DNA of 64,000 nt. Source: Fastidiosipila sp. (lineage in GTDB: Bacteria > Bacillota > Clostridia > Saccharofermentanales > DTU023). Both the position numbers and the translations under genes were made by a program. This document shows, in pieces, positions 22,919 through 64,000 of the stretch (positions are counted from its first letter, which is position 1; the number at the start of each line of letters is the position of its first letter). The stretch is from NCBI GenBank assembly GCA_012511175.1, contig JAAZGO010000010.1, forward strand, positions 5,563 to 69,562, given 5' to 3'. The notes under the pieces are model-generated. The model was given only the letters and a program-made list of their open reading frames with translations, searched no databases and was not told the origin of the DNA.

Positions 22919-23002
22919 TGTATCTGCAAAAAGGCTGTTAAATCGACCCGCAAGGCATCAAAAGACGACCGGCTGAATCAGCAAAAAATCTGTCCGAAGT
23001 GA

Positions 23003-23022
23003 AGGCCGCCCCAGGGCGGCCT
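23003..23022 (-). terminator. GC-rich hairpin between convergent namA-like and pntB genes (possible terminator)
   Basis: AGGCCGCC-ccag-GGCGGCCT is a perfect 8-bp stem. On the minus strand a T6 run follows only after ~11 nt, so this is not a canonical terminator. Confidence 0.35.
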
Positions 23023-23047
23023 CCTCGTGGTCGTAACTGTGATTCGC

Positions 23048-25678
23048 TCAACACTTGCGGTAGGCCCGGATCAGGGCGTTCAATGTTTCCTTGGCATCTC
23101 CCAGCAGGAGCGCAATACCGGAACGGTATGACTCGTCGTAGAGAGGATTGTCGACACCCGCATAGCCGGGCAGTTTATCAAAGTTGCAGATAATGATGTG
23201 TTTGGCCTCCTCGACGTTGAGGATGGGCATACCGTAGATGGGCGTTCCCTCCGCCGTATTGGCTGCCGGATTGACCACATCGTTGGCTCCGATGATCAGA
23301 GCGACATCGGTTTTGGCAAATTCTTCGTTGACGTCCTGCATTTCATGGAGTTTGTCGTAGGGGACATCGACTTCTGCCAGGAGGACGTTCATGTGGCCCG
23401 GCATCCTGCCCGCCACGGGGTGAATAGCGAATTTTACCTCTTTGCCTTCCTGTTCCAGTTCAGTCATCAGTTGTTTGACGAGTGACTGCGCCTGGGAGAG
23501 GGCCATGCCGTAACCGGGTACGATAATGACGCTCCGGGCCTCATTCAGCCATTTGCCGCCCAGCTCCTCCGGCGCGGATTCCTCCCCGGCCGGTGCCTTC
23601 GGTACCTGGCAGACCCGGAAGGCCTGGATGATGGCATTCAGGGTGTCTTTGGCGTCACCCAGCATGAGAGCGACGTGATCCTCGCGTCCTTCATCATAGA
23701 GCGGGTTGTCGACGCCGGCATAGCCCGGAAGTTTGTCGAAGTTGCAAATAATGACGTGCCTGGCGTCTTCGACATCCAGGATGGGCATGCCGTAAATGGG
23801 TGTTCCCTCTGCCGTGTTGGCAGCCGGGTTGACCACATCATTGGCGCCGATAATGAGCGCCACGTCTGTTTCTTTGAAAGCGGGGTTGATCTCGTCCATT
23901 TCCCGGAGCTTGTCATAGGGAATATCGACCTCGGCCAGGAGAACGTTCATGTGCCCCGGCATCCTGCCGGCGACCGGGTGGATGGCAAATTCAACCTGCT
24001 TGCCTTCCTGCTCCAGCTCAGTCATCAACTGCTTGACGGTTGACTGTGCCTGGGAGAGGGCCATGCCGTAACCCGGCACAATGATGATCTTCTCCGCTTC
24101 CCGGAGCCAGAAACCGCACTGGAGTTCAGGAGTCAAGATACCCTTATCGGGATCTTCTTCCTCTCGTTCCAATCCCCCTTCGCGGTAGGATTTCATGATG
24201 GCGTCAAGCGTTTCCTTGGCATCTCCCAGCATGAGGGCGATGTGATCTTCGCGACCCTCATCATAGAGTGGATTGTCGACACCCGCATAGCCGGGGAGCT
24301 TGTCGAAATTGCACATGATGACTTTTTTGGCGTCTTCGACATCCAGGATGGGCATGCCGTAAATAGGTGTTCCCTCTGCTGTGTTGGCAGCCGGGTTGAT
24401 CACATCATTGGCGCCGATGACGATGGCGACATCCGTGTCCTTGAACTCATCGTTAATATCCTGCATCTCATAGAGCTTGTCGTAGGGAATGTCAACTTCA
24501 GCCAGTAGGACATTCATATGGCCGGGCATCCTGCCCGCCACGGGATGAATGGCGAATTTGACCTCCTTGCCTGCTGCTTCCAGCTCGGTCATCAGCTGCT
24601 TGACGGTCGATTGAGCTTGGGACAGAGCCATGCCATAGCCTGGCACGATGATAACGCGCTCGGCATCGCGGAGCCAGCATCCGCAGGATTCCCCGGGCGA
24701 CATGGCAGCCGCGGGAAGACCTTTGGTTTCCTTCCCCGCTGGATCAGGTACTTTCGGCCGTCCTGCCGGTTTTCCGGCCGCCGATGTCTTGCCGAGCAGA
24801 ATGTCAAAGAGCTTGCGGTTCATGGCCCGGCACATGATCTGAGTCAGAAGGAGGCCGGAGGCACCGACGACACCCCCGACAGCCACCAGAAGAGGATCGG
24901 CGATGGCCATGCCGGCGATGGATCCGGCTACACCGGACAAAGAATTGAGCAGGGAGATGGTGATGGGCATATCAGCGCCGCCGACCCGGATGGCGAAGAT
25001 GACACCAAAGGCGCCGGATAACAGGGCGCAAAGGATGATCAGGACTGCTTTCAGGACAGGCGCTGCCAGGATAGCGGGAAAGACCAGCAGGATCACAGTG
25101 ACAAGCGACAAGATCAGAGTCAGGGCCGTCCAGACAGGGTGCTTTTTCAGGACAATGGGGCGCTGTGGGAGAAGATGATGGAGTTTGCCCGCTGCCACCA
25201 GGCTGCCCGTTAAAGTCAGTGATCCGACAAAGATGGCAAGCCCGGCGGTTGCCAGCGAAAAAACCGTTTCGCCTGGCTTGGCCGCGATCAGGGTCAGGAT
25301 GCCGGCCAGCATGGAGGCACCGCCCCCGAAGCCATTCAGCAGGCCGACCATCTGTGGCATCTGGATCATCTTGACCTTGACGGCGATCAGGATGCCGATC
25401 AGGAGCCCGACCAGCATAGCTGCCCAAAGTTCAATGAAACTGAATATGCCGAAATACCAGAGTGTCAGCACAATGGCCAGCAGCATGCTGACGGCTCCCA
25501 TGGCATTGCCCGCCACAGAGGTTTCAACCCGGCTCATCATGGAGATGCCGACCAGGACGGCGACGGTCAGAATTCCCGCAGCCACGTAGTAGACAATATT
25601 CTCAGCCGTTGAAGCCTGTTCGGCCACCAGGAGAGCGGGCAGGAAAGAGATCTTGGAAAGAATCGCAGAAAGAATCAT
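23048..25678 (-). CDS. pntB: NAD(P) transhydrogenase subunit beta with three tandem dIII (NADP(H)-binding) domains
   Basis: 876 aa. The N-terminal ~290 aa form the polytopic dII domain. Three colinear ~170-aa copies of the dIII domain follow. Each copy carries VPGYGMALSQAQ, AIHPVAGRMPGHMNVLLAEVD, IGANDVxNPAANTAEGTPIYGMPIL, KLPGYAGVDNPLYDE and LGDAK. Confidence 0.9.
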   Translation of the reverse strand: MILSAILSKISFLPALLVAEQASTAENIVYYVAAGILTVAVLVGISMMSRVETSVAGNAMGAVSMLLAIVLTLWYFGIFSFIELWAAMLVGLLIGILIAVKVKMIQMPQMVGLLNGFGGGASMLAGILTLIAAKPGETVFSLATAGLAIFVGSLTLTGSLVAAGKLHHLLPQRPIVLKKHPVWTALTLILSLVTVILLVFPAILAAPVLKAVLIILCALLSGAFGVIFAIRVGGADMPITISLLNSLSGVAGSIAGMAIADPLLVAVGGVVGASGLLLTQIMCRAMNRKLFDILLGKTSAAGKPAGRPKVPDPAGKETKGLPAAAMSPGESCGCWLRDAERVIIVPGYGMALSQAQSTVKQLMTELEAAGKEVKFAIHPVAGRMPGHMNVLLAEVDIPYDKLYEMQDINDEFKDTDVAIVIGANDVINPAANTAEGTPIYGMPILDVEDAKKVIMCNFDKLPGYAGVDNPLYDEGREDHIALMLGDAKETLDAIMKSYREGGLEREEEDPDKGILTPELQCGFWLREAEKIIIVPGYGMALSQAQSTVKQLMTELEQEGKQVEFAIHPVAGRMPGHMNVLLAEVDIPYDKLREMDEINPAFKETDVALIIGANDVVNPAANTAEGTPIYGMPILDVEDARHVIICNFDKLPGYAGVDNPLYDEGREDHVALMLGDAKDTLNAIIQAFRVCQVPKAPAGEESAPEELGGKWLNEARSVIIVPGYGMALSQAQSLVKQLMTELEQEGKEVKFAIHPVAGRMPGHMNVLLAEVDVPYDKLHEMQDVNEEFAKTDVALIIGANDVVNPAANTAEGTPIYGMPILNVEEAKHIIICNFDKLPGYAGVDNPLYDESYRSGIALLLGDAKETLNALIRAYRKC
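23051..23563 (-). repeat. pntB dIII repeat unit 3 (aa ~706-876, C-terminal)
   Basis: Coding direct repeat. It is more diverged at the nucleotide level (compare 23222-23292) but all dIII motifs are kept. Confidence 0.9.
23612..24121 (-). repeat. pntB dIII repeat unit 2 (aa ~520-689)
   Basis: Coding direct repeat, in frame with unit 1 (offset 567 nt) and unit 3 (offset 558 nt). Confidence 0.9.
24179..24688 (-). repeat. pntB dIII repeat unit 1 (aa ~331-500)
   Basis: Coding direct repeat. For example, 24347-24417 is almost identical to 23780-23850 (offset 567 nt). Confidence 0.9.
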
Positions 25679-46290: not shown

Positions 46291-46824
46291 ATGCAGGACA
46301 TTCTTCTAGTGGTTGATATGCAAAACGATTTTGTAGACGGTTCCCTCGGGACACCGGAGGCCAGGTCAATTGTCTCCAATGTGGTCAAAAAAATGAAAAA
46401 GTTCGATGGTCCGGTTCTTTTCACCAAGGATACACACCAGGCAGACTACCTGGAAACTCAGGAAGGCCGGCTGCTCCCCGTGGAGCATTGCATCCGCGGA
46501 ACCGAGGGATGGGAAATTGTCGGGGAAGTTGCTCAAGCACGTCAAGGGAAGGTGATCGAGAAAGATACCTTTGGCGCCCGGGATCTCCCCTCCACGCTGA
46601 TGGAAATGAATGAGGAGGAGCCTATCCGGTCCATCACCCTGGTTGGCCTTTGTACCGACATCTGCGTCATTTCAAACGCCATGCTGATCAAGGCATTCTT
46701 ACCGGAGGTCGAAATCAAGGTGGACGCCAGCTGCTGTGCAGGCGTCACGCCGGAAAGTCACAAAATTGCCCTGGAAGCCATGAAAGTCTGCCAGGTCAGT
46801 GTGACTGGCGAACCGCAGGGCTAG
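46291..46824 (+). CDS. cysteine hydrolase / isochorismatase-family protein (nicotinamidase-like)
   Basis: MQDILLVVDMQNDFV...LVGLCTDICV shows the D-K-C catalytic triad context of the isochorismatase superfamily. Confidence 0.75.
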   Translation: MQDILLVVDMQNDFVDGSLGTPEARSIVSNVVKKMKKFDGPVLFTKDTHQADYLETQEGRLLPVEHCIRGTEGWEIVGEVAQARQGKVIEKDTFGARDLPSTLMEMNEEEPIRSITLVGLCTDICVISNAMLIKAFLPEVEIKVDASCCAGVTPESHKIALEAMKVCQVSVTGEPQG

Positions 46825-47180
46825 CCGCCCGGCTTAAGTTTGTCGTAGTCCCCTTGCCGGTAACCGACAAGCACCTGATCCTCGAAAATGAAAACCGGCC
46901 GCTTAACCAGCATGCCGTCTGAGGCAAGGATCTCGATCATTTCTTGATCCGTCATCAGGGGAAGCTTATCTTTCAGCTTCAGCTCACGGTATTTCATGCC
47001 GCTGGTATTGAAAAAGGCCTTAACCCCCTTGCCGCTTTTGGCAATCCAGCCGGTCAGTTCCTCTCCGGTCGGCCTGTCTTTTTGAATATCGCGGAAGGTG
47101 TAGGGAATGTCATGTTCATCAAGGAAACTCCTTGCTTTACGGCAGGTCCCTCATTTGGGATAGCAGAGAAACAGATTCAT
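46821..47180 (-). CDS. ArsC/Spx-family thioredoxin-fold protein, predicted selenoprotein (in-frame UGA at codon 10, UxxC motif)
   Basis: The gene is not in the ORF track because TGA at 47151-47153 splits it. Read-through translation gives MNLFLCYPK-U-GTCRKARSFLDEHDIPYTFRDIQKDRPTGEELTGWIAKSGKGVKAFFNTSGMKYRELKLKDKLPLMTDQEMIEILASDGMLVKRPVFIFEDQVLVGYRQGDYDKLKPGG*. This is colinear with the ArsC/Spx/YffB family along its full length (CxxCRKA, FFNTSG, YREL, DGMLxKRP, VGY). The ATG overlaps the upstream stop (ATGA) and follows GGAAAGGAG. selC and selB are in the same window. Confidence 0.8.
47120..47134 (-). promoter_or_regulatory. candidate bacterial SECIS hairpin
   Basis: CAAGGA-gtt-TCCTTG is a perfect 6-bp stem starting 16 nt after the UGA. 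The G-first apical loop begins about 22 nt downstream, inside the usual bSECIS window. Confidence 0.4.
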
Positions 47181-48664
47181 GGAAAACTCCTTTCCGTGTG
47201 TTCAATTTTTACGAGTGAGCGCGCTCTTTCATAGTCCTCCGGTGTATCAAGATCAAAACCGGCTGAATGATCATGGCTGATGACTTCGATCACCGCATCT
47301 TCATGGTCCTGAATCACCTGCCTCCCGCCAAGATCACCTGCAAGTGACGACAGCTCCCGGTAGAAGCTGCGGTCAAAGAGCACAGGTGAGGACCGCCTGC
47401 CCTCCCTTACCGGAATCATGATTTTCCCTGTCTCAAATTCCTCCATCAGGTGCCGCAGCAGGAGAGGGGAAAGAAAAGGCTGATCCCCCGGTACATAAAA
47501 ACAGGCCGTGCTTTCAGGGGCCAGGTGCTGCGTCCCGACAGCCACCGATCTGCCCTGGCCTTCGCAATATCTGTCATTGGTGACAAAAGTCAGATTTGTC
47601 CCGCCTTTCAGCGGCCTGATCGCCGTTTCAATGGTTTCACGGACCCGTTGAGATTCAAAACCCGTGACAACCACAAGATCGGGGATACCGGCTGAGAGCA
47701 CCCGGCTCAAGGTCCGGGCGATGACGGTTTGGCCTCCCAGGGGCAGGAGCAGCTTGTTGAGTCCGCCCATCCGCTCTGACATGCCGGCAGCCATGATGAC
47801 CGCAGAGAAGGGTGCGGGCTGCCCGCTGTTTTTGGATTGCCCCCAATAGGTCTTATGCTCTCCCCGATCCAGGCCTTTGAAAAAGACAGCACTGATCCGG
47901 CTGTTTTCAAGTACCCGCCCCGCCAGTTCATGGAAGAACCCTTGGGTCCTCTGCTCTTTGTCCAGGCAATCCGCCTGGTTGAAAACGACAGCAATTTTGC
48001 TGGTTGGCGGGATGCCCTTGAAAAAATGACCGGAGTTCAAGAGCGAAAGAAGATTGGAAATTTGGATGGGTTTCCCGGCTTCAAGGCCGGTGGCCGCAGA
48101 GAAGAGGGGAGCGCGGTGGACCACCGGTTCGGCCAGGGCTTGCCCGATGGCGGAAAGACCGAAGAGTATCAGGGTCAGATCAGTGGTTTTAGGTATGACC
48201 GGTTCGTGTTCCGCGTGGGCCTTAAGCGGTTTTCTCTTTGAGCCGTCAGCTTCACAAAGGATGAGGGTGTCCTTGTCACCTGCCTCTCTCTGTTCCCGCA
48301 CCCAGGCATCCAGTTGATCCCTGTCAAGTCCGCGGTGCTTGCCGGCGATATCCTCACAGGCGGGGCCCAGCCAGAGGCCGGATCCGGCAGGAGGCGCGGC
48401 CGTAACACGGGCCAGGGCCGGATTCTTCTTTTGCTTGTGTGAAAGGGGCGGCGCGACTTCCCTGCCTGCCCCGGGGAGGCCTAAGGCGGTGGTTGAGGTC
48501 AGGATGGAGCGGGGCCGTATTGCGGCATCAAAAAGCTCGACCAGGGTGGTCGTCTTGCCGCCCCCGCCGATGGCGCTAACCAGGAAAGGCCGCGGATCGA
48601 GTTGCGCATCCTGCCTGATCAGCGAGCGGACATAGGCCTCGATCGTCAGATTGGCTGCGGTCAT
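47177..48664 (-). CDS. yqeC: fusion of YqeC-type selenium-dependent hydroxylase accessory protein (N-terminal) with MocA/YgfJ-type molybdenum cofactor cytidylyltransferase (C-terminal)
   Basis: The ATG at 48664 follows AAGGAG; the longer ORF to 48844 overlaps yqeB. The N-terminal half has VSAIGGGGKTTTLVELF...ILTSTTA (YqeC P-loop). The C-terminal half has FSAVIMAAGMSERMGGLNKLLLPLGGQTVI...YVPGDQPFL (MobA-like NTP transferase). Confidence 0.75.
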   Translation of the reverse strand: MTAANLTIEAYVRSLIRQDAQLDPRPFLVSAIGGGGKTTTLVELFDAAIRPRSILTSTTALGLPGAGREVAPPLSHKQKKNPALARVTAAPPAGSGLWLGPACEDIAGKHRGLDRDQLDAWVREQREAGDKDTLILCEADGSKRKPLKAHAEHEPVIPKTTDLTLILFGLSAIGQALAEPVVHRAPLFSAATGLEAGKPIQISNLLSLLNSGHFFKGIPPTSKIAVVFNQADCLDKEQRTQGFFHELAGRVLENSRISAVFFKGLDRGEHKTYWGQSKNSGQPAPFSAVIMAAGMSERMGGLNKLLLPLGGQTVIARTLSRVLSAGIPDLVVVTGFESQRVRETIETAIRPLKGGTNLTFVTNDRYCEGQGRSVAVGTQHLAPESTACFYVPGDQPFLSPLLLRHLMEEFETGKIMIPVREGRRSSPVLFDRSFYRELSSLAGDLGGRQVIQDHEDAVIEVISHDHSAGFDLDTPEDYERARSLVKIEHTERSFP

Positions 48665-48701
48665 TCCCGCTCCTTTCACAGCGGTCGGGGAGCAATCGCT
48701 T

Positions 48702-49493
48702 CTATTCCCCAAAATGCGCCAGGATGGCCTCCAGCACACCGCCCGCGATGGTGCGGCCCTTGTCGCTGATGGTCCGGGTGTAGTCGGCATCCCCGCGCGG
48801 GTCGACATCGCCCAGTTTCTGTCCTCTTCTAACCTGGAAGCCATCCGCGATCAGGCCGCGGACGACACCTGAAATGACGGTTTTGACCGGCACCTCGCCA
48901 ACCATCAAAATGACATCGCCTGCAACGACCTGGTCGCCGATTTCGTGGAGATTGCGTGTGACACCCTCCCGGGGGGCTCTCAGGACGCGATCCTTGTCGA
49001 CGCCCTCAATGTTGCCCGGGATTCCGGTGTTGGCAAGGGCTTGCCCCTGATGGACCAGGCGGCCCAGATAATGCCCGCGTTTGGTTTCGATCACCACGTG
49101 GGCTTGCTTTCCCGCTTCGATGCCGGGACCCAGGCCGATGACCAGGGGAGCCCAGGAGAGATCGTAGTCGGGTGTTCGCTTGCTAAGAGTAGCGTCAATG
49201 AAAACGTCCGGTTTCAAAAAATCCCGGACTTGCCGGTCGGGGAGGGTGAGAACGGGGATTAATCCGTCCCGGATGGCGGGTTCGATTTCTTCCAGTGAGC
49301 GGATGTGGCGCGAGGTCACGCCCTCAATTGTCCAGTCACCCTCATAGATGGCGTTGCAATAGGAAACGGTCCGCCGGACACAGGAAGGCGAGGGGAGGTC
49401 GCAGACGACCACGCGGAATCCCGATTGGCGGAGTTTGTGAATAACGGCAGAGGCTAAATCGCCGCCTCCCCGGATAAGGATGGTGTGTTTCAT
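48702..49493 (-). CDS. yqeB: YqeB/EF2563-family selenium-dependent molybdenum hydroxylase system protein
   Basis: 263 aa. MKHTILIRGGGDLASAVIHKLRQSGFRVVVCDLPSPSCVRRTVSYCNAIYEG matches the short Firmicutes form of YqeB. The RBS is AAGGAG. Confidence 0.75.
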   Translation of the reverse strand: MKHTILIRGGGDLASAVIHKLRQSGFRVVVCDLPSPSCVRRTVSYCNAIYEGDWTIEGVTSRHIRSLEEIEPAIRDGLIPVLTLPDRQVRDFLKPDVFIDATLSKRTPDYDLSWAPLVIGLGPGIEAGKQAHVVIETKRGHYLGRLVHQGQALANTGIPGNIEGVDKDRVLRAPREGVTRNLHEIGDQVVAGDVILMVGEVPVKTVISGVVRGLIADGFQVRRGQKLGDVDPRGDADYTRTISDKGRTIAGGVLEAILAHFGE

Positions 49494-49529: not shown

Positions 49530-50720
49530 TCAGTCGGCAAGGCTGTCAAAGTATCCCTGGATCAAAACGACAGGCGTTCCCTTGTCTCCGCTTCCCGATG
49601 TCAGGTCTGCCAGCGAGCCGAGCAGGTCGGTCAACCGGCGCGGGGTGGTGCCTCCGGCATTGGTCTCAAAGTCCAGATCCTCTTCTTTGTCGGCAATTGC
49701 CTGGCGCACAGCCTCTTCAAGCTCCTGGCCCGAGAGGTCGGCAAATTTGCTGTCAGTCAGATATTTCAATTTCAATTCCCTGGGCTTGCCGCCAAGGCCA
49801 TCTGTAAAGGCAGGAGAAACAACAGGGTCGGCCAGTTCCCAGATCTTGCAGACGGGATCTTTGAAAGCGCCGTCGCCGTAAATCATCACTTCAATGTGCT
49901 TCCCTGTCCTTTCCAGGAAGAGACCGGAAAGGGTGTTGACAAACAGTTTGCCGGATCGCGGAAAAAGTTTCACGATTTCTTCGCTGGCCTTGTTGCTGCC
50001 GAGTAATCCAAATTCCTCATGGAAACCGCTTCCGTCAACAGACTGAGTCAAGATGTCATCCAGGCCCAGAACCCGTTTGGCCCCGGCACGCCGCAAGAGC
50101 CGTTTGGTTCTTTCTCTTGCGTGGACGTCACAGACAAGGGTGAAGGGGGTGTAGCGGAGGACAACCAGCGGGTCATTGGCCAGGATGATCTCAGCTTCGC
50201 AGCCCTCGCTCCGGATGGTTTCGCGATAGAAATCAACGTAATCAACGCCGGTGAAGGTGTGGCGGTTCACACCGAAGAGTTTGCGGTAACGCATTTCGGA
50301 AAGGCAGTCCTTCAGCGGATCAATCCCCTTTTCATCCATCTGGTCCAGATCCATCAGGCTGTTGCCGACCTCATCGGAGGGATAGCTGAGCTGCAGCACA
50401 ATTTTTTTTGCGCCACGGGCAATCCCGCGCAGATTAACCGCAAAACGGTTTCTGCTCAGGATGGGAAAAACAAGGCCGATTTCGCCTTCAGGAAATTTCC
50501 TTCTGATGTCTTTGGCGATGTCATCGCAGCTGGCGTAATTGTTCTCGGCCCGGGCCACAACTGACTCCGTTACTGCAACCACATCCCTGTCGTGCAAATC
50601 GAATCCTTCGTCACGGGCGGCGAGTAAAACGCTGTCAAGAATGATTTCCGCCAGCTTATCGCCGCTCTTGATAATGGGGGTCCGGATTCCTCTCGAAGTT
50701 GTTCCTGTGCGTCTGATCAT
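49530..50720 (-). CDS. CofE-like (F420-0:gamma-glutamyl ligase family, COG1478) protein, long Firmicutes form
   Basis: The ATG at 50720 gives MIRRTGTTSRGIRTPIIKSGDKLAEIILDSV...HDRDVVAVTESVVARAE. This is the CofE-type N-terminal pattern (xIPxIKxGDDLAxxI...DGDIxVVxxKIVSKAEG). Confidence 0.6.
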   Translation of the reverse strand: MIRRTGTTSRGIRTPIIKSGDKLAEIILDSVLLAARDEGFDLHDRDVVAVTESVVARAENNYASCDDIAKDIRRKFPEGEIGLVFPILSRNRFAVNLRGIARGAKKIVLQLSYPSDEVGNSLMDLDQMDEKGIDPLKDCLSEMRYRKLFGVNRHTFTGVDYVDFYRETIRSEGCEAEIILANDPLVVLRYTPFTLVCDVHARERTKRLLRRAGAKRVLGLDDILTQSVDGSGFHEEFGLLGSNKASEEIVKLFPRSGKLFVNTLSGLFLERTGKHIEVMIYGDGAFKDPVCKIWELADPVVSPAFTDGLGGKPRELKLKYLTDSKFADLSGQELEEAVRQAIADKEEDLDFETNAGGTTPRRLTDLLGSLADLTSGSGDKGTPVVLIQGYFDSLAD

Positions 50721-50830
50721 GGTCTGGGCGGAATAAACCGCCTCTCCTTTCAGCGAGCCCGTCGGGGCATGCGGCCTCCTGTAATCTTCCCGCCGGGGGA
50801 GCCGCTCCCGCCGAGTCAATCGGAAAGCGG

Positions 50831-50878
50831 AAAAATACGCGCCAACCCTGTTGGCCAACGGCTGGAGGGCCGGCGCGT
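50831..50878 (-). terminator. probable terminator downstream of selC
   Basis: On the minus strand, ACGCGCC...GCCAAC-agg-GTTGGC-GCGT is followed by ATTTTT (nested stems 50836-50842/50872-50878 and 50841-50855). Confidence 0.5.
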
Positions 50879-50884
50879 TTCAAC

Positions 50885-50981
50885 TGGCGGAAGCATGTGA
50901 GAATCGAACTCACCCGGGAGGCTCCTAACCCCCCTCAACGGTTTTGAAGACCGCGGGGCACACCAGAACCCATCTGCCTCC
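50885..50981 (-). tRNA. selC: tRNA-Sec (anticodon UCA)
   Basis: The 97-nt minus-strand sequence is GGAGGCAGATGGGTTCTGGTGTGCCCCGCGGTCTTCAAAACCGTTGAGGGGGGTTAGGAGCCTCCCGGGTGAGTTCGATTCTCACATGCTTCCGCCA. The acceptor is GGAGGCA/TGCTTCC (7 bp plus a G-A) and the anticodon stem-loop is GCGGT-CTTCAAA-ACCGT. There is a long variable arm (GGGGGG-ttaggag-CCTCCC), a T arm GTGAG-TTCGATT-CTCAC, a discriminator G and an encoded CCA. Overall it is very similar in layout to E. coli selC. Confidence 0.9.
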
Positions 50982-51043
50982 ATGCAGTATTGTCATGGTT
51001 GCCAGGTGATTTGTCAACTTTGAGAAGAGGAGGATTGCGTGGG

Positions 51044-63818: not shown

Positions 63819-64000
63819 CTAGGTGAAGAACACGCGAACCTCACCTGTCAGGCGGGTGCGTTTCTGTTTGTCAAAGTACTCAAGAAGTGCCATGGCGAAT
63901 TTGCGGGAACTTTCAAGCTCGTCGCGAAATTCTGCCAGCGTAATCTGTCCCTCTTTTTCAATGGCGGCACGGACGATCTCCCATGCCTGATCCACCTTTT
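63819..64000 (-). CDS. selB: selenocysteine-specific elongation factor SelB, C-terminal fragment (5' end outside window)
   Basis: The minus-strand frame is open from the window edge to TAG at 63819-63821. The translation is KVDQAWEIVRAAIEKEGQITLAEFRDELESSRKFAMALLEYFDKQKRTRLTGEVRVFFT*. The FRD..(x)SRK[FY]A.ALLEYFD...T.R pattern is the last winged-helix (SECIS-binding) domain of SelB. Confidence 0.65.
   Translation of the reverse strand, partial: KVDQAWEIVRAAIEKEGQITLAEFRDELESSRKFAMALLEYFDKQKRTRLTGEVRVFFT

Follow-up and report, generated by a model that had tools for sequence, protein, structure and literature searches.

We found that a 97-nt sequence on the minus strand of this Fastidiosipila DNA is almost certainly the organism's single selC, a selenocysteine tRNA of the bacterial (8/5) type, which would be made by the Ser to Sec pathway and delivered by SelB at UGA. 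The window, by which we mean the whole 64-kb stretch that was analysed, corresponds to positions 5563-69562 of contig C37 (window coordinates are contig coordinates minus 5562), in a host genome of 1.71 Mb in 42 contigs that is 97.7% complete. A sequence-only reading of the window had placed a tRNA-Sec on the minus strand and had named ARAGORN and the Rfam tRNA-Sec model as ways to check it; both were run, and neither assigned the tRNA another identity. ARAGORN reported a single tRNA in the window, a tRNA-SeC at 50885-50981 (−), identical in coordinates to the proposal, with anticodon tca at position 35. RF01852 (tRNA-Sec) matched 50889-50981 (−) over the full model (1-91) with 70.8 bits, the gathering score being 47 (E 1.8e-12), and was the sole Rfam family above threshold within the window. 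The parts that had been listed from the letters, namely UCA in a CUUCAAA loop, an extended acceptor, a 6-bp variable arm, the T arm, a G discriminator and an encoded CCA, are all present in the sequence, which reads in full GGAGGCAG-AU-GGGUUC-UGGU-GUGCCC-CGCGGU-CUUCAAA-ACCGUU-GA-GGGGGG-UUAGGAG-CCUCCC-GG-GUGAG-UUCGAUU-CUCAC-AUGCUUCC-G-CCA and divides as follows, each part being read from the sequence:

50885-50981, minus strand: selC, tRNA-Sec gene, 97 nt (ARAGORN; Rfam RF01852; covariation in 22 family genomes)
GGAGGCAG, minus strand: acceptor 5′ strand
AU, minus strand: linker after the acceptor 5′ strand
GGGUUC-UGGU-GUGCCC, minus strand: D arm
CGCGGU-CUUCAAA-ACCGUU, minus strand: anticodon arm
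GGGGGG/CCUCCC, minus strand: variable arm stem, 6 bp (8 bp by RNAfold)
GUGAG-UUCGAUU-CUCAC, minus strand: T arm
AUGCUUCC, minus strand: acceptor 3′ strand, eight residues
G-CCA, minus strand: discriminator G (G73) and encoded CCA

The acceptor has eight layers, seven standard pairs and one G·A, and the T stem has 5 bp, which gives the 13-layer spacing of the 8/5 class with a conserved G·A, a non-standard pair, as its layer 8. The D stem has the six positions and 4-nt loop that serve as a SelA recognition feature, with five standard pairs and one U·U. Both SerRS identity elements, the long variable arm and G73, are found in selC, and the anticodon loop CUUCAAA carries UCA, U33 and a purine at 37. 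Escherichia coli selC (8/5, RF01852) shares UCA in CUUCAAA, eight acceptor residues per strand, a 5-bp T stem, a 6-position D stem with a 4-nt loop, the long variable arm, G73, CCA and the partners SelA, SelB and SelD. It differs from the gene here in having C:G at layer 8 (7:66 in standard numbering) where selC has G·A, and G:U and C:G in the next two layers where selC has G:C and U:A; the U·U in the D stem and a variable arm of 23 nt with a 6-8 bp stem also set selC apart. Three oppositions in selC are non-standard: G8·A86 in the acceptor, U·U as the fifth D-stem pair and C·U at the top of the anticodon stem, the last two of which were absent from the earlier list. All three are conserved in the genus and lower the model score. 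RNAfold of the lone selC sequence gives a cloverleaf that is not more stable than its shuffles (z = −1.2), a value usual for a G+C-rich tRNA, and covariation outweighs fold energy here. In kind this is a standard and already known bacterial tRNA, found at once by routine tools.

Of 22 genomes from the same genus, 20 carry this tRNA-Sec, as does one of two further genera in the family, so that 21 of the family's 24 genomes have it; a sample of 16 genomes, drawn from three other families within the order, yielded none. Within its order, the Sec trait thus looks confined to Fastidiosipila's family (tRNA-Sec in 21/24 versus 0/16). Members of the genus share the same sequence or nearly so, and its anticodon loop, T loop and CCA are intact. 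We aligned 22 sequences from the family, 11 of them distinct, and counted pairs on a hand-written cloverleaf. Standard pairs filled 90.6% of alignment cells, and compensatory, both-side changes occurred at 10 of 31 stem pairs, a value that 0 of 500 shuffles reached; when the 3′ partners were slid by 1-3 columns as a control, 0-2 compensatory pairs were left. The covarying pairs include five of the seven standard acceptor pairs. All five T-stem pairs were 100% paired, one with a compensatory change, and the 6-bp stem of the 23-nt variable region was likewise 100% paired, with two compensatory pairs. G73 was invariant in the alignment, as was the anticodon loop in the 22 family genomes. The D-stem U·U (columns 15:22) was present in 10 of the 11 distinct sequences and was G·U in the other genus, and the top position of the anticodon stem (columns 27:45) never pairs in this alignment. 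Genome-wide, ARAGORN reported 44 tRNAs and one tmRNA; among these tRNAs selC alone has the anticodon UCA, and the 97.7% complete genome yielded no further tRNA of suppressor type.

The genes that act with selC lie on the same contig, selB running past the window end with selA next and selD 22 kb beyond the window end:

C37:69402-71270, minus strand: selB, Sec-specific elongation factor, its 3′ end at window 63840-64000 (TIGR00475, 345 bits)
C37:71309-72721: selA (TIGR00474, 524 bits)
C37:86065-87108, minus strand: selD, one in-frame TGA (TIGR00476, 379-385 bits, match C37:86164-87090)

All three score above curated cut-offs, and serS, encoding SerRS, is present on another contig. The sequence-only reading had held that UGA is recoded in this organism and that ORF-based annotation may hide further selenoprotein genes. 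Both points were borne out, the first by selA, selB and selD on the contig of selC and by five genes with a family match across an in-frame TGA (selD, grdA, grdB, prxU and an ArsC-like gene), the second by the same five, of which the ArsC-like gene lies inside the window:

46821-47180, minus strand: selenoprotein gene of the ArsC/Spx family, UxxC motif (PF03960, 67.7 bits, match at residues 7-114 and so across the TGA)

In selD the TGA is codon 17 (GG-U-GAK). The grdA match (CFV-U-TAAGAMD) is to NF040748 with 264 bits, the grdB match (TST-U-GTCTRC) to TIGR01917 with 665 bits (cut-off 602) and the prxU match (FTFV-U-GTE) to NF040737 with 350 bits, these three being encoded at C24:8675-11869 (−) and C15:30865-31473 (+). 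The ArsC-like gene reads YPK-U-GTC, its TGA being codon 10 at 47153-47151. That selD itself carries Sec means that selenophosphate synthetase, which supplies the Sec system, needs this system for its own production. The Sec-encoding glycine reductase genes (GrdA, GrdB) and the selenoperoxiredoxin PrxU point to a Stickland-type amino-acid fermenter. Neither selU (2-selenouridine synthase) nor a formate dehydrogenase alpha subunit was found in the 97.7% complete genome. Recoding of UGA is site-specific, as in any Sec-using bacterium, and is no change of the genetic code, since TGA ends 429 of 825 long ORFs and is their commonest stop.

We also screened the whole genome for in-frame TGA flanked by coding-like sequence and compared the candidates with NCBIfam and Pfam. 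The coding score returned 67 candidates, and looser rules 117; those beyond the five confirmed genes resemble neighbouring genes that share a frame, antisense frames or normal stop codons. The first coding-score screen missed the ArsC-like gene. Another candidate from the window, a transhydrogenase-beta-like gene at 22958-25678 (−), was rejected as a false selenoprotein: it ends at window 23050 with ...RKC-TGA, and a strong terminator hairpin follows this TGA. A hairpin is predicted just after the UGA in all five confirmed genes, with modest energies of −6 to −18 kcal/mol in single-sequence folds, and these hairpins are putative SECIS elements.

Around selC we identified a promoter-like site, a terminator-like hairpin and a downstream gene cluster on the same strand:

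50989-51017, minus strand: sigma-70-like promoter, TTGACA-17 nt-GACAAT (consensus scan, pattern match only)
50830-50860, minus strand: terminator-like hairpin, CGTTGGCC-AACAG-GGTTGGCG followed by a T run (consensus scan and sequence)
49530-50858, minus strand: CofE-like gene, F420-0:gamma-glutamyl ligase family (PF01996, 171 bits)
48702-49493, minus strand: yqeB, selenium-dependent molybdenum cofactor biosynthesis protein (TIGR03309, 321.6 bits, cut-off 220)
47177-48844, minus strand: yqeC::mocA fusion (TIGR03172, TIGR03310, PF19842, PF12804)

The promoter-like site has 10 of 12 consensus matches and stops 7 nt short of the tRNA 5′ end, with one such site seen versus 0.1 expected in shuffles, and the terminator-like hairpin stands about 25 nt past the selC CCA. 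Because selC is conserved genus-wide, covaries and is flanked by these promoter-like and terminator-like sites, it appears to be an independent, conserved unit with a putative promoter and terminator of its own. The order after selC and the terminator is CofE-like gene, yqeB, yqeC::mocA and the ArsC-like selenoprotein gene, whose ATG overlaps the yqeC::mocA stop (ATGA). The CofE-like gene, the first downstream of selC, has only weak NCBIfam cofE matches, below cut-off, and since its listed ORF overlaps the terminator, translation probably begins at a codon past the TTG given. The fusion joins a selenium cofactor biosynthesis protein YqeC (TIGR03172, 127 bits, cut-off 73) to a MobA/MocA-like nucleotidyltransferase (TIGR03310, 148.6 bits, below the cut-off of 186); because the start given for this ORF overlaps yqeB, the gene probably starts at a more downstream site. 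By their NCBIfam names, and reportedly in Haft and Self 2008, YqeB and YqeC are markers of the selenium-dependent molybdenum hydroxylase trait. On its upstream side selC is preceded, in the same minus-strand orientation, by lgt (PF01790), a DUF4190 gene and one encoding a 1368-aa UvrD/AddA-type helicase. We counted neighbours in the 1.5-kb flanks of 21 related loci and found the CofE-like gene after selC in 17 and the start of yqeB in 14; selC is therefore stably linked to the selenium operon across the genus, and the upstream side varies, lgt being there in only 5 of the 21.

The gene, its fold, its covariation, all of the pathway genes and five target genes with an in-frame UGA were observed here, and by analogy with the established bacterial Sec pathway we propose the following roles in charging, conversion, delivery and hairpin recognition. 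selC would be transcribed from its own promoter and stop at its own terminator. SerRS would charge the tRNA with serine, using the long variable arm and G73 as identity elements, and SelA would then turn Ser into Sec on the tRNA with selenophosphate from SelD. Recognition at the SelA step would rely on the 6-bp D stem with its 4-nt loop and on the 13-layer acceptor/T helix. SelB, rather than EF-Tu, would bring the Sec-tRNA to those UGA codons with an mRNA hairpin after them.

We next turn to the eighth acceptor layer, which the sequence-only reading had singled out as a G-A opposition and an oddity. The opposition is there, G8 standing opposite A86 (7:66 in standard numbering), and it is no oddity: the family has it without exception, and so do most of the tRNA-Sec genes sampled from the phylum. 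All 11 distinct family sequences have it, the other genus included, where the neighbouring pairs 2, 3 and 7 are changed on both sides and the G·A is kept. For the phylum we took an even set of 150 genomes and all tRNA-Sec matches of at least 64 bits, of which 98 genes were parsable, and read the eighth layer with the T arm as anchor. G·A was found in 65 of the 98, G·G in 13, A·G in 3 and A·A in 2, making 83 with purine-purine, and a standard pair in only 14. The remaining seven acceptor pairs were standard in essentially all 98 genes, and 97 of the 98 had eight acceptor residues. In three of the sampled genomes, all of one genus (G098, G140 and G047), tRNA-Sec lacks an encoded CCA, unlike all others sampled; each of the three has three matches above the Rfam cut-off, the two extra ones near 50 bits and probably class II tRNAs.

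A scan of public genomes with A fixed at 66, and hence biased, gave G·A in 110 of 118 tRNA-Sec genes, which came from Gemmatimonadales, Acidobacteriota, Peptococcaceae, Desulfotomaculum and others. The pattern allowed 26 N in the variable-arm spacer versus 25 in selC, so that only the 98-nt class was matched, and no close relative. These tRNA-Sec genes and those of the phylum have the same architecture as selC, the layer-8 G·A and nearly the same T and anticodon arms; they differ in that most measure 98 nt or have every D-stem position paired, whereas the genus here has 97 nt with the U·U. These comparisons indicate that G·A at 7:66 is a conserved non-Watson-Crick layer rather than damage, and the rule for such tRNA-Sec. 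Single G·A oppositions within helices usually stack as pairs. The purine-purine state in 83 of 98 genes is non-random and suggests that selection maintains a non-Watson-Crick pair which stacks within the helix. We found no description of a G·A layer at 7:66 in the literature searched. In E. coli, according to the summary of Rudinger et al. 1996 in PMC11231383, the EF-Tu antideterminant consists of C7:G66, G49:U65 and C50:G64. That 7:66 is the first of these three pairs suggests a role for the G·A layer. We speculate that the purine-purine 7:66 might be a selected element, this lineage's equivalent of the EF-Tu antideterminant (or one that tunes SelA or SelB), with the 13-layer length kept; we hold this tentatively, as a proposal somewhat more likely to fail than to stand.

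Other readings of the same gene have to be weighed against a 13-layer tRNA-Sec. The layer-8 G and A might be unpaired in a functional tRNA-Sec, leaving a 12-bp (7/5) domain with a 1x1 internal loop, so that SelA, SelB and EF-Tu would see a molecule different from the 8/5 tRNA of E. coli. A standard pair at 8:86 is indeed impossible in any of the 11 distinct family sequences, and 12-bp variants of tRNA-Sec occur in several bacterial groups, those of the Cloacimonetes type and others having seven residues (Santesmasses et al. 2017, PMC5330540). Like these variants, selC has only seven standard acceptor pairs; unlike them, it has eight residues and a purine-purine opposition that keep the 13-layer spacing, and so do nearly all of its relatives in the phylum sample as to residue number. 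Together with the non-random purine-purine state and the usual stacking of lone in-helix G·A oppositions, this makes an unpaired layer improbable in our view. The three non-standard stem oppositions, and the lack of tRNA-Sec matches in the 16 genomes of the three other families, could also be read as signs of a pseudogene decaying after loss of the Sec trait. Such a gene would hardly vary so little within the genus, show compensatory changes and keep its anticodon loop, T loop and CCA whole, nor would all the machinery genes be intact beside it, among them a selD whose full-length product needs Sec decoding. Covariation and the intact Sec-dependent selD contradict decay, which we consider very improbable.

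A tRNA that only resembles tRNA-Sec and places another amino acid at UGA would be either a selC*-type tRNA-Cys or an allo-tRNA-type serine opal suppressor acting through EF-Tu, which a weakened eighth layer could in principle favour. Such tRNAs have a cloverleaf like that of tRNA-Sec, its variable arm long and its acceptor stem extended; the tRNA-Sec covariance model gives them good scores, and they are present in Clostridia (PMC5389517). The tRNA-Cys of selC* has U73, a CysRS identity element, and allo-tRNAs have a 12-bp branch of 8/4 or 9/3 (Mukai et al. 2017, PMC5389517). The gene here has G73 and a T stem of 5 bp, one pair of which shows a compensatory change, and these two features largely refute a look-alike. 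The genome, which has retained selA, selB and selD along with Sec-dependent genes and in which TGA is still the main stop codon, offers no other Sec tRNA candidate, and we give this reading scarcely any credence.

Because this genome uses selenocysteine, ORF-based calls truncate or miss at least five of its genes (selD, grdA, grdB, prxU and the ArsC-like gene). The finding places the organism among the glycine-reductase amino-acid fermenters and among the users of a selenium-dependent molybdenum hydroxylase cofactor. None of these points of annotation and physiology is new biology. The lineage-wide purine-purine layer at 7:66 is the only feature that might repay experiment, because this position controls rejection by EF-Tu in E. 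coli, and it could help the engineering of tRNA-Sec.
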